DNA of 64,000 bases, taken from positions 146,198,001-146,262,000 of the forward strand of contig CM059431.1 in assembly GCA_030390025.1 (NCBI GenBank). Direction: 5' to 3'. The notes below the pieces were generated by a model that searched no databases, had not been told where the DNA came from, and was given only the letters and a program-made list of their open reading frames with translations. This stretch comes from Squalus acanthias (taxonomy: Eukaryota). The first letter of the stretch is position 1. The number at the start of each line of letters is the position of its first letter. A program made the translations under genes and the position numbers. Shown one piece after another: positions 1-50,427 of this stretch.

Positions 1-532
1 ACATTCATTGTGGATACACAGAAACTGCCTGATCCCGCACACTGCAGACACACCCATGTCACCGCCAACCAGCTCTCCTGCCACTGGTGCCGTCTCCCTT
101 CCAGCCTTTCGCTGCCTTGTTTGTTACGAAGCATTCTGATTGTCCCGGTATTAATTTCTGACCTGCACTAATGAGAATCCATTAAATGGCTCAGAACAGT
201 TAATTGCACAGATAAAAGAATTACATTTTGTGGAAGATGTGTAAAATTATGACCCGTTGCTCCACTGGGCCACAGTTTGAACTGTTCCGGGAAAAACTTA
301 CAAACTTGGGCAGGTGGAATAGTTCGTCGCAACTTTCTGCTTTCAATGTTCAACGACCCACCGCAAAATATAGTTTGGTGCAGTAATGTTAGAGTAGAGT
401 CACCACCAGTAATGCTCGAGTAGTGTGACCACCAGTAATGTTAGAGTAGAGTCACCAACAATAATACGATAGCAAAATACTGCAGGTGCTGGAAATAAAA
501 CGCTGGAAAAACTCAGCAGGCGAGGCAGCATC

Positions 533-1237
533 GACGACACGGCCCTCGACCGTGTCCGTTCTATCTCCCGCACTTCTGCCCTCACCCCTGCCCCTCCCTC
601 CTGGAACCACGATAGAGTTCCCCTTGTCCTCACCTTTCACCCCACCAGACTCCACATTCAACGGATCATCCTCCGCCATTTCTGCCACCTCCAGCGTGAT
701 CCCACCACCAAACGTATCTTTCCCTCACCTCCCCTTTCAGCATTCCGCAGGGACCGCTCCCTCCGCGACACCCTAGTCCACGCCTCTACCACCCCCAGCA
801 CCCCTTCCCCTTCGCCCGGGACCTTCCCGTGCAAGCGCAGGAGATGCAACACATGCCCTTATACCTCCCCTCTTCCCACTGTCCAGGGCCCCAAACACCC
901 CTTCCAGGTGAAACTGCGATTTACTTGTACTTCCTGCAATTTAGTATACTGTATTCGCTGCTCACGATGTTGTCTCCTCTACATTGGAGAGACCAACTGC
1001 AGATTGGGTGACCGCTTTGCGGAACACCTCCGTACAGTCCGTAAGGGGGACCCCGAGCTCCCGGTCGCCTGTCACTTTAATTCACCACTTCACTCCCACA
1101 CTGACCTCACCGTCCTCGGCCTATTACACTGTTCCACGGAAGCGCAGCGTAAGCTCGAGGAACAGCACCTCATCTTTCGTTTAGGCACGCTACAGCCCTC
1201 TGGACTCAATATCGAGTTCAACAATTTTAGATCATAA
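533..1237 (+). pseudogene. PLE ORF C-terminal fragment (linker + GIY-YIG endonuclease), no start codon
   Basis: ORF 908..1237 extends upstream in frame without stops to the inversion junction at ~533. Confidence 0.88.
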
Positions 1238-1515
1238 CCTTAGCCCCATCACATTTATATTTTATTTTCTCATCCACCCTTTTATTTGCATCCCCCCTTT
1301 TTTTGCCCCTCCTAGTAGCTGCCAGCACTACTTCATTCTGCCAGTGCATTTCACACTTCTTTCAGCCTTAACCTGTCACATTAACACCACCTCTTGCCTT
1401 GAATATCTCTTAATGTCTCTTAATGTCTCTTAATCTCTCCTTTTGTTCTTTCATCCCCTCCCCCTTTTCCCAGCTTTATCCTTGCCTTAAATCTATTTGA
1501 CTTCCTGCAGTCTCC

Positions 1516-1552
1516 AGTTCTGATGAAAGGTCTTCGATCTGAAACGTTAACT
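1516..1552 (+). ncRNA. Minimal type I hammerhead ribozyme motif in PLE pLTR (family A)
   Basis: AGTT-CTGATGA-A-AGGTC-ttc-GATCT-GAAA-CGT-T-AACT. Core boxes present, stem II, palindromic ACGT stem III, stem I AGTT/AACT. Confidence 0.8.
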
Positions 1553-4500
1553 CTGTTTCTCTCTCCAGGAATGCTGCCTCGCCTGCTGAGTTTTTCCAGC
1601 GTTTTCTGTTGTTATTTCACCAACAATAATGTTAGAGTAGAGTCACCACCAGTAATGTTGGAGCAAGGTTATAGTAGGGTAACCACCAGATATGTTAGAG
1701 CAAAAACTCAAACATTAATGTTAGAGTAGAGTCAACACCAATAATGTTAGAGTAGAGTCACCACCAGTAATGTTAAAATAGGGACACCACCAGTTATGTT
1801 ATAGTAGGGTCACCACCAATAATGCTATAGTAGAATTACTACCAGTAATGTTAGAGTAGAGTCACCACCAGTAATGTTAGAGTAGAGTCACCACCAGTAA
1901 TGTTAGAGTAGAGTCACCACCAGTAATGTTAGATTAGAGTTACCATCAGTAATGTTAGAGTAGAGTCACCACCTGTAATTTTAGTGTATATTCACTACGA
2001 GTAATGTTAGAGTTGAGTCACGACCAGTAATGTTAGAGTAGATTCAGAACCAGTAATGTTAGAGTAGAGTCACTAACAGTAATGTTAGAGTAGATTCACC
2101 ACCAGTAATTTTTGAGTACAGTCACCACCACCAATGCTGGAGTAGATTCACCACCTGTAATTTTAGAATATATTCACCACGAGTAATGTTAGAGTAGAGT
2201 CACCACCAATAATGTTAGAGTAGAGTCACCACCAGTAATGTTAGAGTAGAGTCACCACCTTTAATTTTAGAATATATTCACCTCGAGTAATGTTAGAGTA
2301 AAGGCACCAGCAGTAATGTTGAAGTAGGGGGATCACCAGTAATGTTAGCGTAGAGTTACCACCAGTAATGATATATTAGAATAACCACCGGTAATGTTAG
2401 TGTAGATTCACCACCAGTAATGTTAGAGTAGGGTGACCACCATTGATGTTAGAGTAGGGTCACCACCAGTAATGTTACAGTAGGGTCACCACCAGCATTG
2501 TTATTGTAGAGTCACCACGAGTAACGGTGGAGTAGGGTCACAACCAGTAATGTTCGAATAGAGTGACCACCAGTAAAGTTCGAGTCGTGTCAACAACAAT
2601 AATTTCCGAGTAGGGTCACCACCAATAACGTTAGAGTAGTGTCACCACCAGTAATGTTGGAGTAGTGGCATCACCAGTAATGTTAGACTAGGGTCGCCAT
2701 CAGTCATGTCAGAGTAGATTCACAACCTGTAACGCTAGAGTAAAGTCACCACCAGTAATGTTAGAGTAGAGTCGCCGCTAGTAATGTTAGAGTAGGCTCA
2801 CTAACAGTAAAGTTAGAGCAGGTCACCTCCAGTAATGTTAGATTAGTGTCATCACCAGTAATTTTAGATTAGGGTCACCACAAGTAATGTTAGACTCGGG
2901 TCACGGCCATTACTGTTGAGTAGAGTCACCACCAGTAATGTTTTAGTAGATTCACCACGAGAAATGTGAGAGTAGAATCACCACCAGTAATGTTAGAGTT
3001 GGGTCACCAGCAGTAATGTTAGAGTAGAGTAACCACCCGTAATTTTCGAATCCGGACAACACCAGTTATGTTAGAGCAGTTCCACCACCAGTAATGTTAT
3101 AGTAGAATTACCGCCAGTAATGCTAGAGTTGGGTCACCACCAGTTATGTTAGAGTAGAGTCACCAGATGTAATGTTAGAGTAGAGTCACCATCAGTAATG
3201 TTAGATTAGGGTAACCAGCATTAATGTTAGATAAGGGTCACCACAAGTAATGTTAGACTAGGGTCACCGCCATTAATGTTAGAGTAGGGCACCACCAGTA
3301 ATGTTAGTGTAGAGTCACCACCAGTAATGTTGGAATAGGGTGAATACCAGTAATGTAAGGGTAGAGTGACAACGAGTAATGTTAGAGTCGGGACAACAAC
3401 AGTAATTTTAGATTAGAGTCAGCACCAATAATGTTAAAGTAGAGTCAACACCATTAATGTTGGAGATGGGGCACCGCCAGTAATGTTAGAATGGAGTCAC
3501 CACCAGTAATGTTAGAGAACATTCACCACCAGCAATGTTAAAGTAGGCTCACCACAAGTAATGATAGAATAGAGTTACCATCAGTAATGTTAGAGCAGCG
3601 TCACCAACAGTAATGTTAGAGTAGAGTCACCACCATTAATGTGTGAATAGGGACAACACCAGTTATGTTAGAGTAGTGCCACCACCAGAAAAGTTATAGT
3701 AGAATTACCACTAGTAATGTTAGAGTAGGGTCACCAGCAGTAATGATAGAGTAGATTCACCAGCAGTAATGATAGAGTAGATTCACCAGTAGTAATGTTA
3801 TAGTAGAGTCACCATTAGTAATGTTAGATTACAGTCATCACCAGCAATGTTAGATTAGGGTCGCCGCAAGTAATGTGAGAGTAGGGTCTCCACCAGTAAT
3901 GTTAGTGTCGGGTCACCACCATTAATGGTGGAGTAGGGTCGGTACCTGTAATCTTAGGGAAGAGTGACAAACAGTAATGCCAGAGTAGGGTCAACAACAG
4001 TAATTTTAGAGTAGGGTCACTATCAATAATGTAAGAGAATAGTCACCATCATTAATTTTGTAGTTGGGACATTACCAGTAATGTTAGAGTAGAGTCATGA
4101 TCAGTAATGTTAGGGTTTATTCACCACCAGTAATGTTAAAGTGGAGCCATCACCTGTAATATTATTGTAGAGTCACCACCAGAAATTATAGATTATGGTC
4201 ACCACCAGTAAAGTTAGAGTAGGTCACCTCCAATAATGTTAGATTAATGTCACCACCAGTAATGTTAGAGTAGAGTCACCAACTGTAATGTTTGAGTATA
4301 GTCACCACCAGTAATGTTAGAGTAGAATCACCAGCATTCATGTTAGAGTAGAGTAAACGCCAGTTGTGTTGGAGTAGCGTCACCATCAGTAATGTTAGTG
4401 TAGAGTCCCCACCAGTAATGTTGGAGTAGGGTCACTACCAGTAATGATAGAGTAGAGTGACCACCAGTAATGATAGAGTATGGTCAGCAACATTAATGTT

Positions 4501-5903
4501 AGAGCAGTGTCTCCACCAGTAATGTTGGAGTAGGGGCACCAACAGTAATGTTATAATACAGTCACCACAATAAATGTTAGATTAGAATCACCACCAGTAA
4601 TGTTAGAGTAGAGTCAAAAACCAATAATGTTAGAGTAGATTCAACACCAGTAATGTTCGAATACGGACAACACCAGTTATGTCAGAGTAGTGCCACCACC
4701 AGTAATGTTATAGTAAATTTATCGCCAGTAATGTTAGAGTATAGTCACCAACAGTAATGTTGGTGTAGAGTCACCAGATGTAATGTTAGAGTAGAGTCAA
4801 CACCAGTAATGTTAGGTTAGGGTCACCACCAGCAATGATAGATTAGGGTCACCACCAGTAATGTTAGAGTAGAGACACCACCAGTAATGTTAGAGCAGAG
4901 TCACCAACAGTAAGGTTAGAGTAGCGTCACCAACAGTAATGATATATTAGAATAACCACCAGTAATGTTAGAGTAAAGTCACCAGCAGTAATGTTAGAGT
5001 GGAATAACCACCAGTAATGTTAGAGTAGAGTCAGCACCTGTAATTTTAGAATATATTCACCACGAGTAATGTTAGAGTAGAGTCACCACCAGTAATGTTA
5101 GATTAGACTCACCACCAGTAATGTTACAGTAGAGTCAGCACCTGTAATTTTAGAATATATTCACCACGAGTAATGTTAGAGTAGAGTCACCACCAGTAAT
5201 GTTACAGTAGAGTCACCACCTTTAATTTTAGAATATATTCACTACGAATAATGTTAGAGTAGAGTCACCACCAGTAATGTTAGATTAGAGTCACCACCAG
5301 CAATTTTAGAGTATAGTCACCACGAGTAATGTTAGAATAGGTTCATCATCAGTAATGTTACAGTAGCGTCATTACCAGTAATGTTTGAATAGAATCACTA
5401 GCAGTAAAGCTACAGTAGAGCCACCACCAATAATGTTAGATTAGTTTCACCATCAGTAATGTTACAGTAGCGTCATTAACAGTAATGTTTGAATAGAATC
5501 ACTAGCAGTAAAGTTATAGTAGAGCCACCACCAATAATGTTAGATTAGTTTCATCATCAGTAATGTTACAGTAGCGTCATTACCAGTAATGTTGAAGAAA
5601 GGTCACCACAAGTTATGTTAGATTGGATTCACCAGCAGTAATGTTAGAGTAGAGATACAACCAGTAATGTTAGATTAGGGTCACGAACAGTAATGTTAGA
5701 GTAGAGTCACCACCAGTAATGTTAGAGTAGAGTCACCACCAGTAATGTTAGAGTAGAGTCACCACCAGTAATGTTAGAGTAGTGTCACCACCAGGAATCT
5801 TAGTGTAGAGTCACCACCATTAATGTTGAAGTAGGGTCACTACCCGTAATGTTACAGTAGAGCGACCACCAGTAAAGTTAGAGTCGGGTCAACAACAGTA
5901 ATT

Positions 5904-6035
5904 CCGACGAAGGGTTTCGACCTGAAACGTTAACTCTGTTTCTCTCTCCACCGATGTTGCCTGTCCTGCCGAGTTTTTCAAGCGTTTTCTGTTGTTATTT
6001 CGGATTTCCAGCATCCGCAGTATTTTGCTATCGTC
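5904..6035 (+). mobile_element. Solo PLE pLTR fragment (family A) with mutated hammerhead core
   Basis: Homologous to 1520-1618 and to the reverse complement of 466-500. Flanked by direct repeat ACAGTAATT (5895-5903, 6036-6044). Core reads CCGACGA. Confidence 0.85.
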
Positions 6036-9000
6036 ACAGTAATTTCCGAGTAGGTTCACCACCAATAACGTTAGAGTAGAGTCACCAGCAGTAATGTTGG
6101 AGTAGGGGCATCACCAGTAATGATAGCGTAGAGATAACACCAGTAATGATATATTAGAATAACCACCAGTAATGTTAGAGTAAAGTCACCTGCAGTAATG
6201 TTAGAGTGGAAGAACCACCAGTAATGTTAGAGTAGATTCACCACCAGTAATGTTAGAGTAGGGTCACCACCATAAATGTTAGAGTAGGGTGACCACCATT
6301 AATGTTAGAGTAGGGTCACCACCAGTAATGTTACAGTAGGGTCACCACCAGTATTGCTAATGTAGTGTCACCACCAGTAATGGTGGAGTAGGGTCACAAC
6401 CAGTAATGTTCGAATAGAGTGACCACCAGTAAAGTTCGAGTCGTTTAAAGAACAATAATTTCCGAGTAGGGTCACCACCAACAACGTTAGAGTAGTGTCA
6501 CCACCAGTAATGTTGGAGTAGTGGCATCACCAGTAATGTTAGACTAGGGTCGCCATCAGTAATGTCAGAGTAGATTCACCACCTGTAACGCTAGAGTAAA
6601 GTCACCACCAGTAATGTTAGAGTAGAGTCGCCACCAGTAATGTTGGAGTAGGCTCACTAACAGTAAAGTTAGAGCAGGTCACCACCAGTAATGTTAGATT
6701 AGTGTCATCACCAGTAATGTTAGATAAGGGTCACCACAAGTAATGTTAGACTAGGGTCACGGCCATTACTGTTGAGTAGAGTCACCACCAGTAATGTTTT
6801 AGTAGATTCACCACGAGAAATGTGAGAGTAGAATCACCACCAGTAATGTTAGAGTTGGGTCACCAGCAGTAATGTTAGAGTAGAGTCACCACCAGTAATG
6901 TTGGAATCCGGACAACACCAGTTATGTTAGAGTAGTTCCACCAGCAGTAATGTTATAGTAGAATTACCGCCAGTAATGCTAGAGTAGGGTCACCACCAGT
7001 TATGTTAGAGTAGAGTCACCAGATGGAATGTGAGAGTAGAGTCAGCATCAGTAATGTTAGATTAGGGTCACCACCAGTAATGTTATATTAGGGTCACCAC
7101 AACTAATCTTAGATTAGGGTCACCGCCATTAATGTTAGAGTAGGGTCACCACCAGTAATGTTAGTGTAGAGTCACCACCAGTAATGTTGGAATAGGGTCA
7201 GTACCAGTAATGTAAGGGTAGAGTGACAACCAGTAATGTTAGAGTCGGGTCAACAACAGTAATTTTAGATTAGAGTCAGCACCAATAATGTTAAAGTAGA
7301 GTCAACACCATTAATGTTGGAGATGGGGCGCCACCAGTAATGTTAGAATGGAGTCACCACCAGTAATGTTAGAGTAAATTCACCACCAGTAATGTTATAG
7401 TAGGGTCACCACCAGTAATGATAGAGTAGAGTTACCATCAGTAATGTTAAAGCAGCGTCACCACCAGTAATGTTAGAGTAGAGTCACCTCCATTAATGTG
7501 CGAATAGGGACAACACCAGTTATGTTAGAGCAGTATCAACAGCAGAAAAGTTATAGTAGAATTACCACCAGTAATATTAGAGTAGGGTCACCGCCAGTAA
7601 TGATAGAGTAGATTCACCAGCATTAATGTTATAGTAGAGTCACCATTAGTAATGTTAGATTACGGTCATCACCAGCAATGTTAGACTAGGGTCACCGTCA
7701 GTAATGATAGAGTAGGGTCACCACCAGTAATGTTCGTGTAGGGTCACCACCATTAATGGTGGAGTTGGGTCGGTACCTGTAATGTTAGAGAAGAGTGACA
7801 AGCGGTAATGCCAGAGTCGGGTCAACAACAGTAATTTTAGAGTAGGGTCACCATCAATAATGTTAGAGAAGAGTCACCACCATTAATGTTGTAGTTGGGA
7901 CACTACCAGTAATGTTAGAGTAGATTCACGATCAGTAATGTTGGAGTAGAGTCACCACCAGTATTGTTAGAGTAGAGTCACCACCAGTAATGTTAGAGTA
8001 GAGTCACCACCAGTAATGTTGGAGTAGAGTCACCACCAGTAATCTTAGAGTAGAGTCACCACCAGTAATGTTAGAGTAGACTTACCAAAAGTAATGTTAG
8101 AGTAGAGTCACCACCAGTAATGTTAGAGTAGAGTCACCACCAGTAATGTTAGAGTAGAGTCACCACCAGTAATGTTGGATTAGAGTCACCACTAGTAATG
8201 TTAGAGTAGAGGCACCACCAGTAATGTTAGAGTAGAGTCACCGCCAGTAATGTTAGAGCAGTTTCACCACCAGTAATGTTAGAGCAGAGTTACCGCCAGT
8301 AATGTTAGAGTACAGTCACCGCCAGTAATGTTAGAGCAGTTTCACCACCAGTAATGTTAGAGTAGAGTCACCACCAGTAATGTTAGAGTAGTGTCACCGC
8401 CAGTAATGTTAGAGTAGAGTCACCGCCAGTAATGTTAGAGCAGTTTCACCACCAGTAATGTTAGAGTAGAGTCACCGCCAGTAATGTTAGAGTAGTGTCA
8501 CCACCAGTAATGTTAGAGTAGTGTCACCACCAGTAATGTTAGAGTAGAGTCACCACCAGTAATGTTAGATTAGAGTCACCACCAGTAATGATAGAGTAGA
8601 GTCACCACCAGTAATGTTAGTTTAGAGTCACCACCAGTAATGATAGAGTAGGCTCACCACCAGTAATGTTAGTTTAGAGTCACCACCAATATTGTTCGAG
8701 TAGAGTCACCACTATTAATGTTCGAGTAGAGTCAGCACAAGTAATGTTAGAGCAGAGTCACCAATAGTAATGTTAGAGTACAGTCACCACCAGTAATGTT
8801 AGAGTATGTTCACCACCAGCAATGTTAGTGTAGGGTCACCACCAGTAATGTTAAATTAGAATCACCACCAGTAATGTTAAAGTGGGCCCTCACCAGTAAT
8901 ATTTGCTTAATGTTAGCGGTGAATCATCGCCAGTATTGTTAGCGATGAATCATCGCCTGTAATTTTAGAGAGGAGTCATCACTACAGTAAAAAAAATAAT

Positions 9001-9219
9001 AATGAGGCAATGGATGAGTGAAGTTTTCACCGAATGAATTTGAGACCCCAAGAGCCTAACACAGTGTCCAGGAGGAATGGTCCATTCAGAGTTCCGTACA
9101 ATTTCCCCATTGGCGGCCCGGCGCACGGAAGCGGAAAATCGCCCCTTGTTTGTTAAGTGACTGTAACTAACGCCACTTATTGTGTAATATGTTTTTTCTG
9201 ACCGTGACACCGATTGCTC

Positions 9220-9226
9220 TATAAAT
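9220..9226 (+). promoter_or_regulatory. TATA box of GPCR copy 1
   Basis: TATAAAT 83 bp upstream of the exon 1 ATG; conserved in copy 2. Confidence 0.6.
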
Positions 9227-9302
9227 GGGGAGTATTTACTGATCTCAGATACATTCCAGTCCGAACCGTAAAGCTGGACAGATTTCGCACCGTTCTTTTA
9301 AA

Positions 9303-9372
9303 ATGGAGCAGCTAATACTTCTACAGATAAAGCAAATTTACTGCCCTATTCTCGCAACCTTTGGGGCTCCCG
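9303..9372 (+). CDS. Class A GPCR (probable GPR139-like family), copy 1, coding exon 1 (MEQLILLQIKQIYCPILATFGAP)
   Basis: ATG in AAAATGG context. Phase-1 donor G|GTAATT joins exon 2 in frame to complete TM1 (GAPANIL). Confidence 0.85.
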
Positions 9373-10885: not shown

Positions 10886-11814
10886 CGAACATATTGACAA
10901 TGGTGATTCTCTCCAGAGGGAAATGCGGCCTTTCCAAATGTATCTCGGTCTACATGGTGGCCATGGCAACAGCAGATCTACTGGTCATTATCCTCAATGT
11001 AATCGTATATAACATTTTGAATAAACACTTCCCATTTTCATTCCTGTCCTACACTGCCGTTTGTAAGTTCATGATGTACATGTGTTGTGTCAGCCTGGAT
11101 ATGTCGGTGTGGTTTACCGTCTCCTTCACATTTGATCGATTTGTAGCTATATGTTGTCAGAAGTTTAAAACAAAGTATTGCACAATGAGAACTGCGGCCG
11201 CGGTCATAACAACGGTCTCTGTTCTGGTTTTTTTACAGAACATCCCCTTTTTGTTTGCCTATAAGCACAAACTAATAATCAACAATGTTCCCTGGGGTTG
11301 TCGCCCCAGTATGGTCTTCTTTTTATCTCCTGCAGGTGTAGCCTACTACCATTTACAAAGTATTTTAATTACATATCTTCCTTTTGCTTTGATATTACTG
11401 TTTAATTGTTTGACAGTCAGACGTATTTTAGCTGCCAGTAGAGCCCGCAGGGAACTCCGGGGTCACAGCAGTGAGAATCAGAGCGATCCAGAGATGGAGA
11501 GCCGAAAGAAATCCATCATTTTACTGTTCATTGTATCGGGCAGTTTTGTATTGTTGTGGCTGACATCTGCCGTGAGTTCTGTAGTTAACAACCTGGCCGT
11601 GCATCACCGACCCGATTATGCAGACCCTGCATACATCGCCACTGAAACCGGATATCTACTCATGTATTTGAGTTCCTGTACAAACACTTGTATTTATGCA
11701 GCTTCACAAACTAAATTCAGGGAAGAGCTGAAGAAGGTGGTGAAATCTCCTTGGACATTGATTCTGATATTGGTTAAAAAAAATGAAAAATTAACTGCAG
11801 CTTTCTTTAACTAG
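10886..11814 (+). CDS. Class A GPCR (probable GPR139-like family), copy 1, coding exon 2; spliced protein 332 aa
   Basis: Polypyrimidine tract + TACAG acceptor. Hydrophobic TM1(end)-TM7. Motifs MATADLL (TM2), C at top of TM3, FTFDRF (DRY), WGC in ECL2, LPF (TM5), FVLLWL (TM6), NTCIY (NPxxY), KFREEL (helix 8). Confidence 0.93.
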
Positions 11815-11956
11815 AGTAAAATTGCAGCCCGTGTTCCATTTTAGAATGGCCGTCTTACCGTTCGGACGAAAGCCGATTGTTGCTCTGAAAATGAACAGGT
11901 ATCAGAAAACCTTTCTTCCTTTTTGTGCCGTGTGTTTTGTGTCTGCTGCTTTCCCT

Positions 11957-12419
11957 GGGTCAGTCGTGGCTCAGCTGGTAGCAACCTCGTGAGAAGGTTG
12001 TGGCTTCAAGTCCCACTCCAGAGACTCAATAATCTACCATAATCTAGGCTGACACTCCAGTGCAAGGCTGAGGGAGTGCTGCACTGTCGGAGGTGCCCTC
12101 TTTCGAATGAGACGTTAAACCGAGACTCCGTCTGCCGTCTCAGGTGGACGTAAAAGATCCTTTGCCCTATCTCGAAGAGGAGCAGGAAGTAATCCCAGGT
12201 GTCCTAGCCAATATTTATCTTTCAATAAACATCACTAAAAAAATAATTATCTGGTCATTCTAACGTTGCTGTTTGTGGGAGCTTGCTGTGCGTAAATTGG
12301 CTGCCGTGTTTGCTACATTAGAATAGTGGTTGCACCTCAAAAAGTACTTCATTGGCTCTAAAGGGCCGGTGGTCGTGACAGGAGCTATATAAATACAAAT
12401 CTTTCCTTTTCTTTCTTTT
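11957..12419 (+). mobile_element. tRNA-derived SINE with Deu-like central domain (SacSINE1/DeuSINE-like)
   Basis: A box TGGCTCAGCTGG, B box GGCTTCAAGTCC, central GGAGGTGCC..GAGACGTTAAACCGAG..GTAAAAGATCC, tail GCTATATAAATAC followed by CTTT repeats. Confidence 0.8.
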
Positions 12420-29000: not shown

Positions 29001-29371
29001 CCATTAATGTTAGAGTAGAATCACCACCAAAAATGTTAGATTAGGTTCACCATCAGTAATGTTACAGTAGCGTCATTACCAGTAATGTTAGATTAGGTTC
29101 ACCACCAGTAATGTTAGATTAGGGTCACGAACAGTAATGATAGAGTAGAGTCACCAGCAGAAATGTTAGTGTAGAGTCACCACCAGTAATGCTGGAGTAG
29201 GGTCACTTCAATACAGTTCGAGTCGGGTCAACAACAATAATTTCCGAGTCGGCTCACCACCAATAACGTTAGAGTAGTGTCACTACCAGTAATGTTGGAG
29301 TCGGGGCATCAGCAGTAATGTTAGCGTAGAGTCACCACCAGTAACGTTGGAGTAGTGGCATCACCAGTAAT

Positions 29372-29715
29372 GTGAAATCGCACAACACCAGGTTACAGTC
29401 CAACTGCTTTATTTGATATCACAAGCTTTCAGAGCTGCTGACTGAGGAGCAGCAGCAGCAGCAGAGTGGTGGTCTCTGTGAGCAGGAAGAGGAGAAGGAG
29501 AAGGAACCAAAAAGATCAACACCAGGTTACAGTCCAACTGCTTTATTTGATATCACAAGCTTTCGGAGCGGCTGCTTGTTCGTCAGACTTCACCTGACGA
29601 AGGAGCAGCAGCTCCGAAAGCTTGTGATTCCAAATAAAGCAGTTGGACTATAACCTGGTGTTGTGCGACTTCTCACTTTTGTCCACCCCAGTCTAACACA
29701 GGCATCTCTGCATCA
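29372..29715. mobile_element. Family B palindromic PLE-derived insertion with duplicated left arm and 81-bp foreign insert
   Basis: Same satellite flanks as the 22806 copy. Right arm retains CTGGTGTTGTGCGAC, which is deleted in the 22.8 and 37.7 kb copies. Confidence 0.8.
29590..29627 (+). ncRNA. Minimal type I hammerhead ribozyme motif (family B)
   Basis: TCAC-CTGACGA-A-GGAGC-agca-GCTCC-GAAA-GCT-T-GTGA. Stem I TCAC/GTGA, perfect 5-bp stem II, palindromic AGCT stem III. Identical copy at ~33639-33676. Confidence 0.75.
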
Positions 29716-32700: not shown

Positions 32701-33323
32701 AGTTGAGTCAACACCAATAACGTTAGAGTAGAATCACTACCAGTTATGTCAGAGTAGGGTCACCACCAGTTATGTTAGAGTAGAATTACCGCCAGGTATG
32801 TTAGAGTAGGGACACCACCAGTTATGTTAGAGTAGAGTCACCAGATGTAATTTTAGAGTAGTGTCACCACCAGTAATGTTAGCTTAGGGTCACCACAAGT
32901 AATGTTAGACTTGGGTCAACGCCATTAATGTTAGAGTAGTGTCACCACCAGTAATGTTAGTGTAGAGTCACTACCAGTAATGTTGGAATAGGATCAGTAC
33001 CAGTCATGTAAGGGTAGAGTGACAACCAGTAACGTTAGAGTCGGGTCAACAACTGTAATTTTAGATTAGAGTCACCACCAATAATGTTAAGGTAGAGTCA
33101 ACACCATTAATGTTGGAGGTGGGGCACGACCAGTAATGTTAGAATGGAGTCAACACCAGTAATGTTAGAGTAGAATCACCACCACTAATGATAGAGCAGA
33201 GTCACCACCAGTAATGTTATAGTAAAATCACCACCAGTAATGTTAGACTAGAATCACCAGCAGTAAAGTTATAGTAGAGTCAACACCATTAATGTTAGAG
33301 TAGAAACACCACCAAAAATGTTA

Positions 33324-33523
33324 GAAATAACAACAGAAAACGCTGGAAAAACTCAGCAGGCCAGGCAGCATCCGTGGAGAGAGAAAGAGAGTTGACGTTT
33401 CAGGTCGATGACCTTTCATCAGAACTGGGAAGAGCTGGAAATCAAATAGATTTAAGGCCAGGGTAAAGCTGGGAAAAGGGGGAGGGGATAAAGGAACAAA
33501 GGAGGAGATGAAGAGACATTAAG
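33324..33523 (-). mobile_element. PLE 3' UTR/pLTR fragment (family A)
   Basis: Reverse complement matches ~1420-1618. Confidence 0.88.
33390..33426 (-). ncRNA. Minimal type I hammerhead ribozyme motif (family A) with canonical GUC site
   Basis: Minus strand AGTT-CTGATGA-A-AGGTC-atc-GACCT-GAAA-CGT-C-AACT. Confidence 0.82.
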
Positions 33524-33620
33524 GAGCAGATTCACCACGAGAAATGTGAGAGTAGAATCACCACCAGTTATGTTAGAGTTGGGTCACCGGCAGTAATGTT
33601 AGAGTTGAGTCAACACCAAT

Positions 33621-33764
33621 CTGCTCCTTCGTCAGACTTCACCTGACGAAGGAGCAGCAGCTCCGAAAGCTTGTGATTCCAAATAAAGCAGTTGGACTAT
33701 AACCTGGTGTTGTGCGACTTCTCACTTTTGTCCACCCCAGTCTAACACAGGCATCTCTGCATCA
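33621..33764. mobile_element. Left-truncated family B PLE-derived insertion
   Basis: Matches ~29572-29715. Confidence 0.8.
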
Positions 33765-36700
33765 ATACCAATAATGTTAGTGTAGAGTCACCACCAGTAA
33801 TGTGCGAATAGGGACAAAACCAGTTATGTTAGAGTAGTGCCACCAGCAGAAATGTTATAGTAGGATTACCACCAGTAATCTTAGAGTAGGTCAACCCCAA
33901 TAATGTTAGAGTAGATTCAGCAGCAGTAATGTTAGATTAGGGTCACCACCAGCAATGTTATATTACGGTCACCACCAGTAAAGTTAGAGCAGGGTCACCA
34001 CCAGTAATCTTCGTGTAGAGTCACCACAAGTAATGGTGGAATAGGGTCAGTACCAGTAATGTTAGAGAAGAGTGACAACCAGTAATGTCAGAGTAGGGTC
34101 AACAACAGTAGTTTTAGAATAGGCTCACCACCAATAATGTTTGAGACGAGTCACCATCATTAATGTTGTAGTTGGGACACCATCAGTAATGTTAGAGTAG
34201 AGTCACCACCAGTAGTATTATAGGAGAGCCACCACCAATAAAGTTAAAGTAGGGTCACCATCAGTAATAATAGAGTAAAGTTACCACAAATAATGTAACA
34301 GTAGGATCACCAGCAATAATGTTAGAGTAGTGTCACCACCAAAAAGGATACAGTAGAGTCACCAACAGTAATGTTAGGGTAGTGTCACCACCTGTAATGT
34401 TACAGTATAGTCATCACCAGTAATGTTAGAGTAGAGTCACCAGCTTTAATGTTAGAGTAGACTCACCGCCAGTAATGTTGGAGTAGGGTCACCATTTGTA
34501 ATGTTAGCGTAGTGTCACCACCAGTAATGTTGGTGTAGGGTCACTACCTGTAATGATAGTGTAAAAGTGACCAACAGTAATGTTAGAGTATGGTCACCAA
34601 CATTCATGTTAGAGCAGCGTAACCACCAGCAATGTTGGAGTAGTGGCACCAACAATAATGTTATAATAGAGTCACCACAAGAAATGTTAGATTAGAATCA
34701 CCACCAGTAATTTTGGAGTAGATTCAACACCAGTAATGTTCGAATACGGACAACACCATTTATGTTGGAGCCGTGCCACCACCAGTAACGTTATGGTAGA
34801 ATTACCGCCAGTAATGTTAGAGTAGGGTCACCACCAGTAATGTTAGAGGAGAGTCACTAGATGTAATGTTAGAGTAGAGTCACCACCATTAATGTTAGAT
34901 TAGGGTCCCTACTAGTAATATTAGATTAGGGTCACCGTCAGTAATGTTAGAGTAGTGTCAGCACCAGTAATGTTAGAGTAGGGTCACCACCTGTAATAGT
35001 GGAGTAGGGTCAGTACCAGTAATGTTAGAGTAGAGTGACAACCAGTAATGTTAGAGTCAGGTCAACAACCAAAATTTTAGATTAGACTCAACACAAATAA
35101 TGTTAAAGTAGAGTCAACACCATTAATATTGGAGGTGGAGCACCACGAGTAATGTTAGAATAGAGTCACCACCAGTAATGTTATAGTAAAGTCACCACCA
35201 GTAATTTTAGAGTAGAGTCACCACCAGTAATGTTAGATTAGGGTCACCAGCAGTAATGTTAGAGTAGAGTCACCACCAGTAATGTTAGAGTAGGGTTACC
35301 AACAGTAATGTCAGAGTTGAGTCACCACCAGTAATGTTAGAATACGGTCAGCACGAGTAACGTTAGGGTAGAGTCACCACCTGTAATGTTAGATTAGTGT
35401 CACCCCCGGTAATATTAGAGTAGGTCACCACAAGTAATGTTAGAGTCGGGTCAAAGCCAGTAATGTTAGAGTAGGTTCACTAACAATAATGTTAGTGTAG
35501 GGTCACCACCAGTAATAGTGGAGTAGGGTCAGGACCAGTAATGTTAGAGGAGAGTCACTAGATGTAATGTTAGAGTAGAGTCACCACCATTAATGTTAGA
35601 TTAGGGTCCCCACTAGTAATATTAGATTAGGGTCACCGTCAGTAATGTTAGAGTAGTGTCAGCACCAGTAATGTTAGAGTAGGGTCACCACCTGTAATAG
35701 TGGAGTAGGGTCAGTACCAGTAATGTTATAGTAGAGTGACAACCAGTAATGTTAGAGTCAGGTCAACAACCAAAATTTTAGATTAGACTCAACACAAATA
35801 ATGTTAAAGTAGAGTCAACACCATTAATATTGGAGGTGGAGCACCACGAGTAATGTTAGAATAGAGTCACCACCAGTAATGTTATAGTAAAGTCACCACC
35901 AGTAATTTTAGAGTAGAGTCACCACCAGTAATGTTAGATTAGGGTCATCAGCAGTAATGTTAGAGTAGAGTCACCACCAGTAATGTTAGAGTAGGGTTAC
36001 CAACAGTAATGTCAGAGTTGAGTCACCACCAGTAATGTTAGAATACGGTCAGCACGAGTAACGTTAGGGTAGAGTCACCACCTGTAATGTTAGATTAGTG
36101 TCACCCCCGGTAATATTAGAGTAGGTCACCACAAGTAATGTTAGAGTCGGGTCAAAGCCAGTAATGTTAGAGTAGGTTCACCAACAATAATGTTAGTGTA
36201 GGGTCACCACCAGTAATAGTGGAGTAGGGTCAGGACCAGTAATGTTAGAGTCTGGTCAACAACAAAACCCAAATAATGTTAAATTAGAGTCAACACCATT
36301 AATATTGGAGGTGAGGCACCACCAGTAATGTTAGAGCAGATTCAACACCAGTAAAGTTTGAGTAGAGTCACTACCAGTTATATAAGAGTTGGGGCAACAC
36401 GTGTAATGTTAGAGTAGAATCACCACCAGTAATGGTAGAGTAGGGTCACCACCAGTAATGTTAGAGTAGGGTCACCACCAGTAATGTTAGAGTAGGCTCA
36501 CCAACAGTAAAGTTAGAGCAGATCATCACCAGTAATGTTAGATTAGTGTCACCACCAGTAATGTTTGATTAGTGTCACCACCATTAATGTTAGATTAGGG
36601 TCACCACAAGTAATGCTAGACTAGGGTCACCGCCATTAATGTTAGAGTAGGGTAACCACCAGTAATGTTTTAGTAGATTCACCACGAGAAATGTGAGAGT

Positions 36701-37691
36701 AGAATCACCACCAGTTATGTTAGAGTTGGGTCACCGGCAGTAATGTTAGAGTTGAGTCAACACCAATAACGTTAGAGTAGAATCACTACCAGTTATGTCA
36801 GAGTAGGGTCACCACCAGTTATGTTAGAGTAGAATTACCGCCAGGTATGTTAGAGTAGGGACACCACCAGTTATGTTAGAGTAGAGTCACCAGATGTAAT
36901 GTTAGAGTAGTGTCACCACCAGTAATGTTAGCTTAGGGTCACCACAAGTAATGTTAGACTTGGGTCAACGCCATTAATGTTAGAGTAGTGTCACCACCAG
37001 TAATGTTAGTGTAGAGTCACTACCAGTAATGTTGGAATAGGATCAGTACCAGTCATGTAAGGGTAGAGTGACAACCAGTAACGTTAGAGTCGGGTCAACA
37101 ACTGTAATTTTAGATTAGAGTCACCACCAATAATGTTAAGGTAGAGTCAACACCATTAATGTTGGAGGTGGGGCACGACTAGTAATGTTAGAATGGAGTC
37201 AACACCAGTAATGTTAGAGTAGAATCACCACCAGTAATGATAGAGCAGAGTCACCACCAGTAATGTTATAGTAAAATCACCACCAGTAATGTTAGACTAG
37301 AATCACCAGCAGTAAAGTTATAGTAGAGTCAACACCATTAATGTTAGAGTAGAAACACCACCAAAAATGTTAGATTAGGTTCACCATCAGTAATGTTACA
37401 GTAGCGTCATTACCAGTAATGTTAGAGAAGGGTCACCACCAGTAATGTTAGATTAGGGTCACGAACAGTAATGATAGAGTAGAGTCACCAGCAGTAATGT
37501 TAGTGTAATGGTGGAGTAGGGTCACTACTAGTAAAGTTCGAGTCGCGTCAACAACAATAATTTCCGAGTCGGCTCACCACCAATAACGTTAGAGTAGTGT
37601 CACCACCAGTAATGTTTGAGTCGGGGCATCAGCAGTAATGTTAGCGTAGAGTCACCACCAGTAACGTTGGAGTAGTGGCATCACCAGTAAT

Positions 37692-37886
37692 GAGAAATCG
37701 CACAACACCAGGATACAGTCCAACTGCTTTATTTGAAATCACAAGCTTTCGGAGCGGCTGCTCCTTCGTCAGACTTCACGTGACGAAGGAGCAGCCGCTC
37801 CGAAAGCTTGTGATTTCAAATAAAGCTGTTGGACTATAACTTCTCACTTTTGTCCACCCCAGTCCAACACCGGCATCTCCGCATCA
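37692..37886. mobile_element. Family B palindromic PLE-derived insertion, near-identical to 22806-23000
   Basis: Same flanks, same 15-bp deletion and same GTGACGA core change. Confidence 0.8.
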
Positions 37887-40800
37887 ATACCAATAATTTT
37901 AGTGTAGAGTCACCACCAGTAATGTGCGAATAGGGACAAAACCAGTTATGTTAGAGTAGTGCCACCAGCAGAAATGTTATAGTAGAATTACCACCAGCAA
38001 TCTTAGAGTAGGTCAACGCCAATAATGTTAGAGTAGATTCAGCAGCAGTAATGTTAGATTAGGGTCACCACCAGCAATGTTATATTACGGTCACCACCAG
38101 TAAAGTTAGAGCAGGGTCACCACCAGTAATCTTCGTTGAGAGTCACCACAAGTAATGGTGGAATAGGGTCAGTACCAGTAATGTTAGAGAAGAGTGACAA
38201 CCAGTAATGTCAGAGTAGGGTCAACAACATTAATTTTAGAGTAGGTTCACCACCAATAATGTTAGAGAAGAGTCAGCACCAGTAATGTCAGAGTTTAATC
38301 ACCACCAGTAATGCTATAGTAGAGTCAGCACCAATAAGGTTAAAGTAGGGTCACCATCAGTAATGATAGAGTAGAGTCACCACCATTAAGGTTACATTAG
38401 AGTCACCACCAGTAATGTTAGTGTTGGGTCACCACCAGTAATGTTAGAGTATAGTCACCACCAGTAATGTTAGAGTAGAATCACCAGCATACATGTTAGA
38501 GTAGAGTCACCGCCAGTTGTGTTGGATTAGCGTCACCACCAGTAATGTTAGTGTAGAGTCACCACCACTAATGTTGGAGTAGGGTCACTATCAGTAATGA
38601 TAGAGTAGAGTGAAAACCAGTAATGATAGAGTATGGTCAGCAACATTAATGTTAAAGGAGAGTCACTGCCAGTAATGTTGGAGTAACTGTAATATTATGA
38701 CACAGTCACCACAAGAAATGATAGATTAGAATCCCACCAGTAATGTTAGAGTAGAGTCAAAAACCAATAATGTTAGATTAGATTCAACACCAGTAATGTT
38801 CTAATACGGACAACACCAGTTATGTCAGAGTAGTGCCACCACCACAAATGTTATAGTAAATTTATCGCCAGTAATGTTAGAGTTGGGTCACCAACAGTAA
38901 TGTTGGAGTAGAGTCACCAGATGTAATGTTAGATTAGAGTCACCACCAGATGTAATGTTAGATTAGGGTCACCACCAGCAATGTTAGATTAGGGTCAACA
39001 CAAGTAATGTTCGATTATGGTCACCGCCAGTAATGTTAGAGTAGGTTCACCACCGTTAATGTTAGTGTAGAGTCACCACCTGTAATGGTTGGTTAGGGTC
39101 AGTAGCAGTAGTGTTAGAGTAGAGTGACAACCATTAATGTTAGCCTCAGGTCAACAACAGTAATTGTAGAGTACAGTCACCACCAATAATGATAGAGAAG
39201 AGTCAACATCATTAATGTTGGAGCTGGGGCACCACCAGTAATGTTAGAGTAGAGTCACCACCATTAATGTTAGAGTAGGATCAACACCAGTAATGTTAGA
39301 GTAGAGACACCATCAGTAATGTGATCGTAAAGTCACCACCAGTAATGTTAGAGTAGGGTCACCACCAGTAATGTTAGAGTAGATTCACCACCTGTAATGT
39401 TAGATTGGACTCACCACCAGTAATGTTAGAGTAGATTCACCACCTGTAATGTTAGATTGGACTCACCACCAGTAATGTTCGAGCAGATTCAAAACTAGTA
39501 ATGTTAGAGTAGAGTCACTACCAGTAATGTTAGAGTAGAGTCATCACCAGTAATGTTATAGTAGAGTCAACACCATTAATGTAAGAGTAAAGTCACTATC
39601 AGTATTGTTAGATTAGGTTCAGCACCAGTAACGTTACAGTCGCATCACTATCAGTAAAGTTAGAATAGTTTCAGCACAATTAATAATAGATTAGAGTCAC
39701 GAGCAGTAATGTTATAGTAGAGTAACCAGCAGTAATGTTAGGGTAGGTTCACCAGCAGTAATGTTAGAGTAGGTTCACCAACATTTACCTTACAATAGGG
39801 TCACCACCAGGAATGTTAGTGCAGAATCACCACCAGTAATGTTGGAGTAGGGTCACTATCAGTAATGTTAGAGTAGATTGACCACCAGTAATTTTAGAGT
39901 AGAGTCACCACCATTACTGTTGTAGTAGGGGTCCCAACAGTAATGTTTTAGTAGAGTCACCACGAGAAATGCTGTAGTAGAATCACCGCCAGCTATGTTA
40001 AAGTAGAGTCACCCCCAGTAATGTTAGAGTTGGGTCACCCCCAGTGCTGTTAGAGTAGAGTCACCACCTGTAATGTTACAGTATAGTCACCGCCAGTAAT
40101 GTTGGAGTAAAGTCACCACCAGTGATGTTAGTGTAGATTCACCAACAGTAATGTTGAAGTAGGGTCACCAACATTAATGTTAGAGTAGGATCACCACCAA
40201 TAATGATAGAGTAGAGTCAGCACCAGTAATGTTGCAGTAGGGGCAGCAACAGTAATGTTATAGTAGAGTCACCACGAAAATTGTTAGAGTAGAATCACCA
40301 AAAGTAATGTTGGATTAAAGTCAATACCAATAATGTTACAGTAGAGTCACCATCAGTAATGTGCGAATAGGGACAACACCAGTTATGTTAGAGTAGTTCC
40401 ACCACCAGAAATGTTATAGTAGAATTACCACCAGTAATGTTACAGTAGGGTCAACTCCAGTAATGTTAGAGTAGATTCACCAGCATTAATGGTAGAGTAG
40501 AGTCACCATCAGTAATGTTAGATTAAAGTCACCACCAGCAATGTTATATTAAGGTCACCACCAGTAATGTTAGAATAGGTTCACCGCCAGTAATGATAGA
40601 GTAGGGTGACCAACAGTAATGTTAGTGTAGAGTTACACCAGTAATGGTGGATTAGGGTCAGTACCAGTAAGGTTAGAGAAGAGTGACAAACAGTAATGTG
40701 AGAGTAGGGTCAACAAAATTAATTTTAGAGTAGGGTCACCAACAATAACGTTAGAGACGAGTCACCACCAGTAATGTTAGAGTTTAATCACCACCAGTAA

Positions 40801-42154
40801 TGGTATAGTAGAGTCACCACCAGTAATGTTAGAGTAGAGTCACCACATGTAATGTTAGTTTAGAGTCACCAGCAGTAATGTTGGAGTAGGGTCACTAACA
40901 GTAATGATAGTGTAGAGTGACCACCAGTAATGATAGAGTATGGTCAACAGCATTAATGTTAGAGCAGAGTCACCACCAGTAATGTTAGAGTAGAATCACC
41001 ACCAGTAATGTTAGAGTAGAGTCAACACCAGTAATGATAGAGTAGAGTCACCGCCAGTAATGTTAGAGTAGGGTCACCACCAGTAATGTTAGAGCAGAGT
41101 CACCACCAGTAATGTTAGAGTAGAGTCAACACCAGTAATGTTAGTGTAGAGTGACAACCATTAACGTTAGAGTCGGGTCAACAACACTAATTTTAAATTA
41201 GTCACCACCAATAACGTTAGAGATGAGTCAGCACCATTAATGTTGGAGCTGCGGCACCACCAGTAATGTTAGTGTAGAGTCACCACCAGTGTTAGGGTAG
41301 AATCAACAGCAGTAATGTTAGAGTAGAGACACCACTAGTAATGTTATAGTAAAGTCAGCACCAGTAATGTTACAGTAGGGTCACCACCAGTAATGATAGA
41401 GTAGAGTTACCACCAGTAATGTTAGAGTAGGGTCACCACCAGTAATGATAGAGTAGAGTCACCACCTGTATGTTAGATTAGGTTCACCACCAGTAATGTT
41501 AGGTTATGGTCACCACCAGTAATGTTAGAGTAGGGTCTCCCCCAGTAATGTTAGAGTAGAGTCACCTCCAGTAATGTTAGTATAGAGCCACCACCAGTAA
41601 TGTTAGCTTAGGGTCACCAACAGTAACGTTAGTGTAGGGTCTCCCCCAGTAATGTTAGAGTAGAGTCACCTCCAGTAATGTTAATATAGAGCCAACACCA
41701 GTAATGTTAAATTAGGGTCTCCCCCAGTAATGTTACAGTACAGTCACCACCAGTCATTCTAGAGTCGGGTCACCACCAGGACTGTTAAATTAGAATCACC
41801 ACCAGTAATGTTAGAGTGGGCCCTCACCAGTAATATTTGCTTAATGTTAGCGGTGAATCATCGCCAGTATTGTTAGCGATGAATCATCGCCTGTAATTTT
41901 AGAGAGGAGTCATCACTACAGTAAAAAAATAATTTAAAAGTGGCAATGGATGAGTGAAGTTTTCACCGAATGAATTTGAGACCCCAAGAGCCTAACACAG
42001 TGTCCAGGAGGAATGGTCCATTCAGAGTTCCGTACAATTTCCCCAAGGCGTCCCGGCGCACTGAAGCGGAAAATCGCCCTTGTTTGTTAAGTGACTGTAA
42101 CTAACGCCACTTATTGTGTAACATGTTTTTTTCTGACCGGGACACCGATTGTTC

Positions 42155-42161
42155 TATAAAT
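42155..42161 (+). promoter_or_regulatory. TATA box of GPCR copy 2
   Basis: TATAAAT 83 bp upstream of the ATG at 42238. Confidence 0.6.
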
Positions 42162-42237
42162 GGGGAGTATTTACCGATCTCAGATACATTCCAGTCCGAA
42201 CCGTAAAGCTGGACAGATTTCGCACACTTCTTTTAAA

Positions 42238-42307
42238 ATGGAGCAGCTAATACTTCTACAGATAAAGCAAATTTACTGCCCTATTCTCGCAACCTTTGGG
42301 GCTCCCG
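42238..42307 (+). CDS. Class A GPCR (probable GPR139-like family), copy 2, coding exon 1
   Basis: Same peptide as copy 1; consensus donor G|GTAAGT. Confidence 0.87.
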
Positions 42308-43825: not shown

Positions 43826-44727
43826 CGAACATATTGACAATGGTAATTCTCTCCAGAGGGAAATGCGGCCTTTCCAAATGTATCTCGGTCTACATGGTGG
43901 CCATGGCAACAGCAGATCTACTGGTCATTATCCTCAATGTAATCGTATATAACATTTTGAATAAACACTTCCCATATTCATTCCTGTCCTACACTGCCGT
44001 TTGTAAGATCATGATGTACATGTGTTGTGTCAGCCTGGATATGTCGGTGTGGTTTACCGTCTCCTTCACATTTGATCGATTTGTAGCTATATGCTGTCAG
44101 AAGTTTAAAACAAAGTATTGCAGAATGAGAACTGCGGCCGCGGTCATAACAACGGTCTCTGTTCTGGTTTTTTTAGAGAACATCCCCTTTTTGTTTGCAT
44201 ATAAGCACAAACTAATAATCAACAATGTTCCCTGGGGTTGTCGCCCCAGTATGGTCTTCTTTTTATCTCCTGCAGGTGTAGCCTACTACCATTTACAAAG
44301 TATTTTAATTACATATCTTCCTTTTGCTTTGATATTACTGTTTAATTGTTTGACAGTCAGACGTATTTTAGCTGCCAGTAGAGCCCGCAGGGAACTCCGG
44401 GGTCACAGCAGTGAGAATCAGAGCGATCCAGAGATGGAGAGCCGAAAGAAATCCATAATTTTACTGTTCATTGTATCGGGCAGTTTTGTATTGTTGTGGC
44501 TGACATCCGCCGTGAGTTCTGTAGTTAACAACCTGGCCGTGCATCACCGACCCGATTATGCAGACCCTGCATACATCGCCACTGAAACCGGATATCTACT
44601 CATGTATTTGAGTTCCTGTACAAACACGTGTATTTATGCAGCTGCACAAACTAAATTCAGGGAAGAGCTGAAGAAGGTGGTGAAATCTCCTTGGACATTG
44701 ATTCTGATATTGGTTAAAAAAAAATGA
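43826..44727 (+). CDS. Class A GPCR (probable GPR139-like family), copy 2, coding exon 2; spliced protein 323 aa
   Basis: TACAG acceptor; intact 7TM frame with the same motifs as copy 1. Confidence 0.93.
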
Positions 44728-44896
44728 AAAATTAACTGCAGCTTCTTTAACTAGAGTAAAATGACAGCCCGTGTTCCATTTTAGAATGGCCGTCTTTCCG
44801 TTCGGACGAAAGCCGATTGATGCTGTGAAAATGAACAGGTATCAGAAAACCTTTCTTCCTTTATGTGCCGTGTGTTTTGTGTCTGCTGCTTTCCCT

Positions 44897-45358
44897 GGGT
44901 CAGTCGTGGCTCAGCTGGTAGCAACCTCGTGATAAGTTTGTGGCTTCAAGTCCCATACCAGAGACTCAATAATCTACCATAATCTAGGCTGACGCTCCAG
45001 TGCAAGGCTGAGGGAGTGCTGCACTGTCGGAGGTGCCCTCTTTCGAATGAGACGTTAAACCGAGACTACGTCTGCCGTCTCAGGTGGACGTAAAAGATCC
45101 TTTACACTATCTCGAAGAGGAGCAGGGAGTAATCCCAGTGTCCCAGCCAATATTTATCCCTCAATCACCATCACTATAAAACTAATTATCTGTTCATTAT
45201 TACATTGCTGTTTGTGGGAGCTTGCTGTGCGTAGATTGGCTGCCGTGGTTCCTACATTAGAATAGTGGTTACACCTCAAAAAGTACTTCATTGGCTCTAA
45301 AGGGCCGGTGGTCGTGACAGGAGCCATATAAATACAAATCTTTCCTTTTCTTTCTTTT
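44897..45358 (+). mobile_element. tRNA-derived Deu-domain SINE (duplicated copy)
   Basis: Paralog of 11957-12419. Confidence 0.8.
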
Positions 45359-46539
45359 ACCCCGGGTCAATATTATCATTTCCCGCTGATCAGAATATCC
45401 TAAAGTATGCTAATGTGATACTGTGTTTGTTTGTCTTTCTATTGTTGCAATTTAGCCTTTTCCTGTTAAGCAGTGAAGCACTGGTCTTTTTAAAGTACCA
45501 CTGGGCTGTTGGACCAGGGCTGACCCTGCAGCAATGGTCAGTTTCAGGATGAAGTGATAAGCAATTTAATGAAACTCATGACTTTGCAAACAGCTTCATC
45601 AATTTCAGGGAACTTTAATCATTTGGTAACAGTTTGGGAATAGAGTTAGTCCTGCAAAGGAAAACATCTGGACATCCATCATCATTTTCAATTAGTACAA
45701 TAGATACAGAAACCAACAGTCTTACTGTTAAAGGTTTCACTTGGTACAATTGCAATTATATGAACCAAAAGTGAAACTATCGATCAGATAAATCATTTAA
45801 AATATCTTTGTGTAGAGTTTTATTTTAAATTTGATATCATTATGTAATACAGCGAGGGTTCTCAAGCACAGGGAGTGAGAAAAATCTATAAAAATGTATT
45901 CGGTTTGGTAAAGGCCTAAGATACTGAGCTCAGAACTGTGACATGTTTGGTCTCCACCCAACCATCATCAGGTGTGGTTTTAATTTCTATCTTTTAAGTT
46001 TGTGTGTAAGTATAATTGCATGTATTATGTGCTGAATAAACCTATGGCACCTCACTCCAATGTTCAAGAACATTATGGAAAAGCTTATGCTAACAATAGC
46101 CTTTGTACTTTAATTGTGAATGGGCTTCATTTATTAACTGTGATTAAGAGCCCGCTTTACCCGTCACTCTTTAACGTTCCACTTGACCCAGACGTTCTCC
46201 AAAACCACAATCCTCTTGGTGGCAGGGCCCCGTGGAGCCCGGGCTCTGCCAATCCGGCTGGCATCCAGCTTCTGGAGGACGTGGTGATTAGTTGCGGGAA
46301 GTTTTGTAAAAGAGCCACATTCTCATTTACCTGGATGCGGACAACCAGTAGTATTTAAGGCCCGAGTTAGGCAGCCGGCAGAGGTTTTAATTCCATCAGT
46401 CAGAGATGTTCTGCGCCCAGCTACAATCCTGAGAAGGCGACCTTCAATAAACCACATCATCCAAACTCCACAGGTGAAATAGAAAGCAATTAACTATTAC
46501 ATTACTGTGCCACATTCAATCTGATGTGCTTGAGATTTC

Positions 46540-48525: not shown

Positions 48526-48644
48526 GAAACCAGTCAATTTCCTGTAACAAGAAGGGGCATCAGAGGCAATGTGTAAGGATCATCAGGACTATCAATTGGT
48601 TGGGCCATGTGAGCAATAAATGGAGGGGAAATCATGGGCAATAA

Positions 48645-49255: not shown

Positions 49256-49277
49256 GTACAATCGTTCGTCAAGAACA

Positions 49278-50425: not shown

Positions 50426-50427
50426 TC

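Follow-up and report, generated by a model that had tools for sequence, protein, structure and literature searches.

Receptor genes and satellite arrays in the window

The DNA analysed here is a 64,000-nucleotide stretch of the Squalus acanthias assembly GCA_030390025.1 (contig CM059431.1, positions 146,198,001 to 146,262,000 of the forward strand), which will be referred to as the window. It contains two genes for class A G-protein coupled receptors (GPCRs), copy 1 and copy 2, each preceded by an array of a 26-bp satellite. An earlier note on this DNA had proposed that satellite and gene form one duplicated unit, and that the satellite may drive the expansion of a GPR139-like receptor family. 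The coordinates of the features are collected in Table 1.

Both genes have two exons and an open reading frame, encoding proteins of 332 (copy 1) and 323 amino acids (copy 2) that match Pfam 7tm_1 with E values of 6e-24 and 2e-23, respectively. The first coding exon is 70 bp long, and the introns (1513 bp in copy 1 and 1518 bp in copy 2) have GT-AG borders. Splicing was predicted from the sequence; both exons were matched by family proteins in tblastn searches, which found no further GPCR fragments in the window. The distance between the TATAAAT word and the ATG is 83 bp in both copies. The tail of the copy 2 protein is nine residues shorter due to one extra A in a run, and several relatives are alike in this respect. 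Comparison of the coding sequences, omitting the last, frameshifted codon, yielded five non-synonymous changes at 751 sites and six synonymous changes at 218 sites (ratio of non-synonymous to synonymous divergence, dN/dS, ~0.24, p 0.02). Judged from these sequences both receptor genes look intact, and it is weakly shown that both have been kept under purifying selection since the duplication. At the splice donor (9373-9378) copy 1 has GTAATT, whereas GTAAGT is present in copy 2 and in all contigs listed there from three sequencing runs; the donor of copy 1 may be weakened. In one run guessed to be RNA (X16), family contigs were few and of low depth; they lay on exon 2 and in the 3' flank, and no spliced joint occurred among those listed.

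The 26-bp unit was located in the window with Tandem Repeats Finder (TRF) at 381-465, 1668-8883 (278 copies) and 13203-41817 (1100 copies), and degenerate monomers were found at 8908-8980 and 41842-41914. Every 26-bp array has the + strand orientation. Including the degenerate ends, array 1 spans 8,610 bp and array 2 spans 28,721 bp, and the island between them, which holds copy 1, is 4,214 bp long. These measurements agree with the sizes given in the earlier note (8.6 kb, 28.7 kb and ~4.2 kb). Its description of the array ends was equally accurate: the same satellite stands in the same orientation at both GPCR copies and has the same degenerate terminal monomers. Toward the promoter it fades through four degenerate monomers that are near-identical in the two copies, and it ends 230 bp before the TATAAAT word in copy 1 and copy 2 alike. 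The word 'fused', used there for the relation of array and gene, is too strong, since the array, although directly upstream, is non-coding DNA. No monomer-like signal was found in 1-380. A search for hidden degenerate monomers in the promoter, the gene, positions 1-380 and the downstream DNA gave none above shuffled sequences, save one minus-strand match near 49440. This match was rejected as satellite and attributed to chance; at the corresponding sites two sister units do not resemble the satellite.

Array 1 is interrupted by a 1.15-kb insertion, which leaves ~7.5 kb of monomers. The inserted fragment (466-1616) has a 14-bp target-site duplication (452-465 / 1617-1630) and 35-bp inverted ends; it is a putative Penelope-like element, with an open frame that appears to end in a GIY-YIG-like motif. 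The body of array 1 also contains a small insertion near 5904-6040 and an internal duplication (2311-4101 / 6089-7932) whose halves are 5.7% apart. Array 2 carries a Penelope-like piece at 33322-33525 and four related insertions (22806-22998, 29372-29715, 33615-33765 and 37686-37885), with two pairs at 99%. The three related Penelope-like pieces (466-1616, 5904-6040 and 33322-33525) are 87-92% alike and are independent insertions into the arrays; none of them occupies a site common to array 1 and array 2.

Table 1. Features of the two receptor genes and their satellite arrays (window coordinates)
Feature	Position	Strand	Remarks
Array 1, 5' start	381..465	+	3.3 monomers; TRF
Penelope-like retroelement fragment (presumed) interrupting array 1	466..1616	+	Open frame ending in a GIY-YIG-like motif
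Array 1, body	1617..8842	+	Monomers 87% identical to consensus
Block common to array 1 and array 2	6219..8166 (array 2: 17714-19739)	+	74 monomers
Array 1, terminal five monomers	8843..8990	+	Last four degenerate; orthologous to 41777-41925
Copy 1, putative promoter region	8991..9302	+	TATAAAT at 9220; CpG observed/expected 1.0
Copy 1, exon 1	9303..9372	+	ATG to phase-1 donor GTAATT
Copy 1, exon 2 to stop	10886..11814	+	332-amino acid protein
SINE-like (short interspersed nuclear element-like), very high-copy interspersed repeat in 3' flank	11937..12400	+	In both copies
Duplication junction	13204..13205	+	Blunt join between 3' flank of copy 1 and canonical satellite; end of homology to copy 2
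Array 2, body	13205..41776	+	Nested 0.3-3.7 kb duplications, mostly 98-99.6% identical
Array 2, terminal five monomers	41777..41925	+	
Copy 2, putative promoter region	41926..42237	+	TATAAAT at 42155; CpG observed/expected 0.96
Copy 2, exon 1	42238..42307	+	Identical to copy 1
Copy 2, exon 2 to stop	43826..44727	+	323 amino acids
Copy 2, 3' flank	44728..46113	+	Homologous to 11815-13203, then non-satellite DNA

Duplication junction and history of the arrays

Outside the satellite the duplicated unit (8884-13203 and 41818-46113) is 94.7% identical over 4.3 kb. At the junction, where this homology ends, the microhomology between the 3' flank of copy 1 and the satellite is at most 1 bp. Satellite flanks copy 1 on both sides and copy 2 only upstream; within 9.5 kb downstream of copy 2 none was found beyond one chance match. 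Given the blunt junction and the lack of an array downstream of copy 2, crossover between satellites does not by itself account for the founding event, and a non-homologous break was most likely required for the founding duplication. A crossover between arrays would require satellite on both sides of the ancestral gene, and copy 2 would then have to have lost its downstream array afterwards. The gene homology, 4.3 kb at 95%, is a recombination substrate in its own right. In both copies in the window (2 of 2) the satellite was duplicated with the gene. That the duplicated unit consists of satellite plus gene, as had been claimed, thus holds for the 3' end of the array: the terminal five monomers (8843-8990 and 41777-41925) are 2.3% apart, and the interiors have blocks in common. 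It does not hold farther upstream, where the interiors have been rewritten and the monomers are not positionally homologous.

Array 2 largely consists of nested young duplications. When eight-monomer windows were compared within their own array, a partner at most 2% apart was found for 56% of 1098 windows in array 2 as opposed to 1.4% of 278 in array 1, and the duplicated blocks of array 2 reach 3.7 kb at 99.6% identity. Between the arrays, variant-weighted alignment detected 20 segments above the maximum obtained with three shuffles. These were the 74-monomer block (0.9% apart), its older sister (5.4%), the terminal five monomers (2.3%) and 17 segments at 6-10%, for example 4283-4855 versus 23551-24116 and 38436-39001. 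The divergence of the older blocks is near that of the neutral gene flanks (5' intron and 3' flank), which is 5-9%. The 74-monomer block (~1.9 kb) was 1.4% apart by base alignment, and its 25 differences in 1831 bp are far fewer than those in the 5' intron and 3' flank (p 2e-18). Between the gene copies, the non-coding DNA diverges unevenly, from 2.0% to 8.8% (chi-square p 1e-9). The site patterns between the arrays (77 / 16 / 9) identify the partner copy in array 1, not the donor.

The ratio of observed to expected CpG is near 1 in both promoters (Table 1) and 0.32 and 0.26 in array 1 and array 2, respectively; the consensus monomer is CpG-free. In a CpG-decay test of promoter and intron four CpG-type transitions were counted, the expectation being 6 without and 26 with tenfold hypermutability, and the controls (3' flank, downstream unit and array blocks) also show little or no decay. 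The CpG pattern gives no hint of methylation spreading, and histone-based repression would stay compatible with it. Transversions outnumbered transitions in every comparison, of the gene copies (8990-13203 versus 41925-46113) as well as of array duplications (for example 42 versus 27, 54 versus 45 and 129 versus 67). This excess and the weak CpG decay even in the controls are unusual for neutral DNA of a vertebrate.

Part of the promoter-to-stop stretch was present in 15 of the 18 sequencing runs listed, which came from seven studies and of which none is on record as RNA; contigs were compared in detail for four of the 18. In three DNA runs (organisms A, E and I) every one of the 30 bins of the unit was covered, each site by many contigs, and 26-bp monomers were present in contigs of organisms A and E. 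Judged from these contigs, whose depth is not equal to copy number, the unit occurs in multiple copies and is older than one species. In runs X4 and X10 the SINE-like repeat of the 3' flank exceeded a depth of 10^6. No contig bridged array and promoter among the 32 pieces listed, of more than 100,000, and none of the contigs listed spanned the whole stretch. Many letters of copy 2 match the prevailing state in contigs from other runs.

Origin of the arrangement and role of the satellite

We consider it probable that the arrangement arose by tandem duplication with one breakpoint in the ancestral upstream satellite, and that the satellite has been inherited as a recombining passenger. The degenerate terminal monomers common to both arrays suggest that the ancestral family member already carried the 26-bp array ahead of its promoter. 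If the breaks of a tandem duplication fell within this array and 1.4 kb past the stop codon, the result would be the order array 1, gene 1, array 2, gene 2 and unique DNA, with the blunt junction that is seen between gene 1 and array 2. After that, the array interiors would have been rewritten by unequal exchange. Array 2 has grown by the nested duplications seen in it, and blocks would have been exchanged between the two arrays and probably between the two genes, as the young block and the patchy divergence suggest. The satellite could ease later copy-number change; a need for it, or regulation of the genes by it, is outside the proposal. Since tandem repeats make up 72% of the window, a gene beside some satellite is expected, and adjacency alone means little. 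The equal spacing and the common terminal monomers are beyond chance, yet they are accounted for by the duplication. The triplication, next door, of a gene-less unit with a 67-bp satellite (see below) was also counted in favour of duplication of satellite together with other DNA.

Several observations weigh against this explanation. Contigs over 13115-13166 from runs X4 and X10 (organisms A and E) stop at 13204-13205. These ends may come from other copies without satellite, which would fit tandem duplication at this locus, or they may mark an old shared branch point, which would not fit a private junction. Moreover, the divergence of the young block is not significantly lower than that of the least-diverged non-coding parts of the genes, the 3' intron (2.0%, p 0.24) and the promoter side (2.7%, p 0.05). 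The block may thus date from a younger duplication, in which case the more diverged segments would have come in from other paralogs. The choice is between late exchange between the arrays and a younger duplication plus paralog import, and either needs recombination among cassettes. Finally, the 230-bp spacing and the terminal monomers are conserved to the same degree as the promoter (2.3-2.7%), and this fits function too.

Satellite-driven unequal crossover, as put forward in the earlier note, is in keeping with the young duplications of array 2 and with the young block (0.9-1.4% apart versus 5-9% in most neutral gene flanks), but does not by itself account for the blunt founding junction. That the satellite is the engine of the family expansion, acting through ectopic recombination or insertion of circular DNA between arrays, seems unlikely. 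Such an engine would be consistent with copy 1 being a 4.2-kb island with satellite on both sides, with the young block common to both arrays and with a unit that is multicopy in three organisms. The non-homologous junction and the absence of a downstream array at copy 2 speak against it, as does the size of the family, which is large in all shark and ray groups listed (120 matches listed, from 17 species). Given how fast satellites turn over, the same 26-mer is unlikely to accompany all its members. A precedent for such a role is offered by the Dox genes and 359-bp repeats of Drosophila (bioRxiv 10.1101/2021.08.05.454923).

The array could instead be a cis-acting chromatin element that keeps the promoters repressed or poised and allows stochastic or array-length-dependent release, leading to receptor choice. 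We regard this as quite improbable. That both copies keep the same orientation and a spacing of exactly 230 bp would agree with it, as would the very large receptor family with its widely variable predicted pocket positions. In addition, copy-number-dependent repression by the dispersed TCAST1 satellite has been described in a beetle (PMC4537270). However, the fixed spacing follows from the duplication, CpG is not depleted in the promoters in the way it is in the arrays, with no hint of methylation spreading, and a neighbouring CpG-rich promoter-like region is also flanked by satellites, which are different ones. There is, in our estimate, only a minimal chance that the arrangement is an assembly artefact, produced by joining two haplotypes or by mis-stitching array reads. 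The 3.7-kb block of array 2 repeated at 99.6% and the absence of a spanning contig among those listed would be in line with an artefact. Against this, the gene copies are 5% apart with indels and many copy 2 letters are common in other runs, so that the two copies are real paralogs, and most array duplications are 1-5% apart. The broader picture of a very large GPR139-related shark family with diversified pockets, in which each gene is tied to an oriented array that drives both copy-number change and the choice of one receptor per cell, is given very little credence.

Eichler et al. reportedly described in 1998 a cluster of KRAB zinc-finger genes with beta-satellite at human 19p12, in which the satellite was duplicated with the gene. 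The likeness lies in a tandemly expanded vertebrate family whose members are each accompanied by the same satellite. Here, by contrast, the satellite has a 26-bp unit, the family is one of GPCRs, the species is a shark, and the arrays, up to 29 kb long, end 230 bp from a TATA box. The Dox superfamily with its 359-bp (1.688) satellite is less close: its insertions into pre-existing arrays are dispersed, with empty sites in sister species (bioRxiv 10.1101/2021.08.05.454923), whereas the shark copies are tandem and their junction is blunt. For TCAST1 in Tribolium, PMC4537270 reports repression and H3K9me2/3 measured after heat stress. That satellite, too, lies near genes and offers a model for array-length-dependent repression; the shark array differs in that it belongs to a duplicated cassette. 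By analogy, the cassette appears to be a further case of a satellite-linked gene cluster, and the receptor family the more interesting lead. The locus is a clear vertebrate example of a satellite that moves along with the copies of a gene family and recombines between them, and a single window reveals both the breakpoint and two ages of shared array blocks. If the array did control expression, natural variation in array length would make this control directly testable.

Receptor family and repeat-rich neighbourhood

A protein search with the window proteins yielded 3788 candidates, 2419 of which had E values of at most 1e-10. The 120 matches listed were all elasmobranch proteins (32 from Pristiophorus, 28 from Heptranchias, 23 from Heterodontus and 37 from 14 other species, 17 species in all), mostly named automatically 'probable G-protein coupled receptor 139' in RefSeq/UniRef. 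The window proteins are 50-76% identical to these 120 members and have the same short N-terminus and family motifs. Only six departures were seen at alignment columns with at least 85% conservation among 63 relatives. With up to 76% identity and the invariant residues kept, they belong to a large, expanded elasmobranch 'GPR139-like' family and show no essential difference from its other members, whose names are automatic. An exhaustive search gave 105 representatives at E values of at most 1e-30. Ten distant representatives comprised three elasmobranch, one salamander, one coelacanth and one teleost protein and four without an informative name.

The name 'GPR139-like', also used in the earlier note, applies in a loose sense. 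When a profile of 65 family sequences was compared with solved structures, human GPR139 (PDB 7VUG, 9M42) was the best match (E 6.8e-18; next 1e-12). With a single window protein the match to human GPR139 was weak (E 3.6e-6), confined to residues 2-119 and behind five other receptors. PMC5430874 describes a Trp/Phe pocket in GPR139, with F109, H187, W241 and N271 as key activation residues. At the aligned positions, mapped by hand on the profile alignment, the window proteins have C, Q, W and Y, so that one of the four (W) is kept; the other pocket positions, mapped in the same way, vary widely among 63 relatives. The weak partial match, the nearer relatives that are not GPR139 and the single pocket residue kept speak against orthology to GPR139, and by sequence the receptors are GPR139-related orphans, not GPR139. 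Distant relatives (31-34%) were found in salamanders, coelacanth and teleost (P0221, P0229, P0241), themselves not GPR139; the coelacanth relative is likewise distant from GPR139 (E 1.8e-18). The distribution of sequences suggests an old orphan receptor lineage of jawed vertebrates.

The larger point is this family. In PMC8455134 and PMC11979771 cartilaginous fishes are called poor in GPCRs and olfactory receptors, against which stand 2419 related proteins obtained from one query, with all 120 listed coming from sharks and rays. If these were chemosensory or immune receptors, a large repertoire would be missing from shark sensory biology. We found no paper describing the shark family; the supplements of the Squalomix preprint (bioRxiv 10.1101/2025.06.08.657570, Fig. 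S3 and Table S4, tandem gene clusters) may list it.

Downstream of copy 2, a gene-less unit of ~1.1-1.9 kb is present in three copies at 47389-53000, which are ~75-80% identical, with a 67-bp satellite between them. In each copy a conserved TATA-like word precedes an initiator-like stretch; no long open reading frame and no Rfam match at gathering score were found in the unit. The third copy is interrupted by a fragment of a long interspersed nuclear element (~51962-52757) and followed by a coding-like stretch of another element (53040-53560), which is acidic and by eye gag-like. A CpG-rich promoter-like region (54575-55320, observed/expected 0.88) with a possible first exon is flanked by a 23-bp array (53742-54574) on one side and a 61-bp array (55589-64000) on the other. 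Another gene probably begins here, one whose intron is filled with satellite. Satellite beside a promoter, and duplication of satellite together with unique DNA, are local norms in this window. Short shark chromosomes have been described as enriched in simple tandem repeats (PMC10620051).

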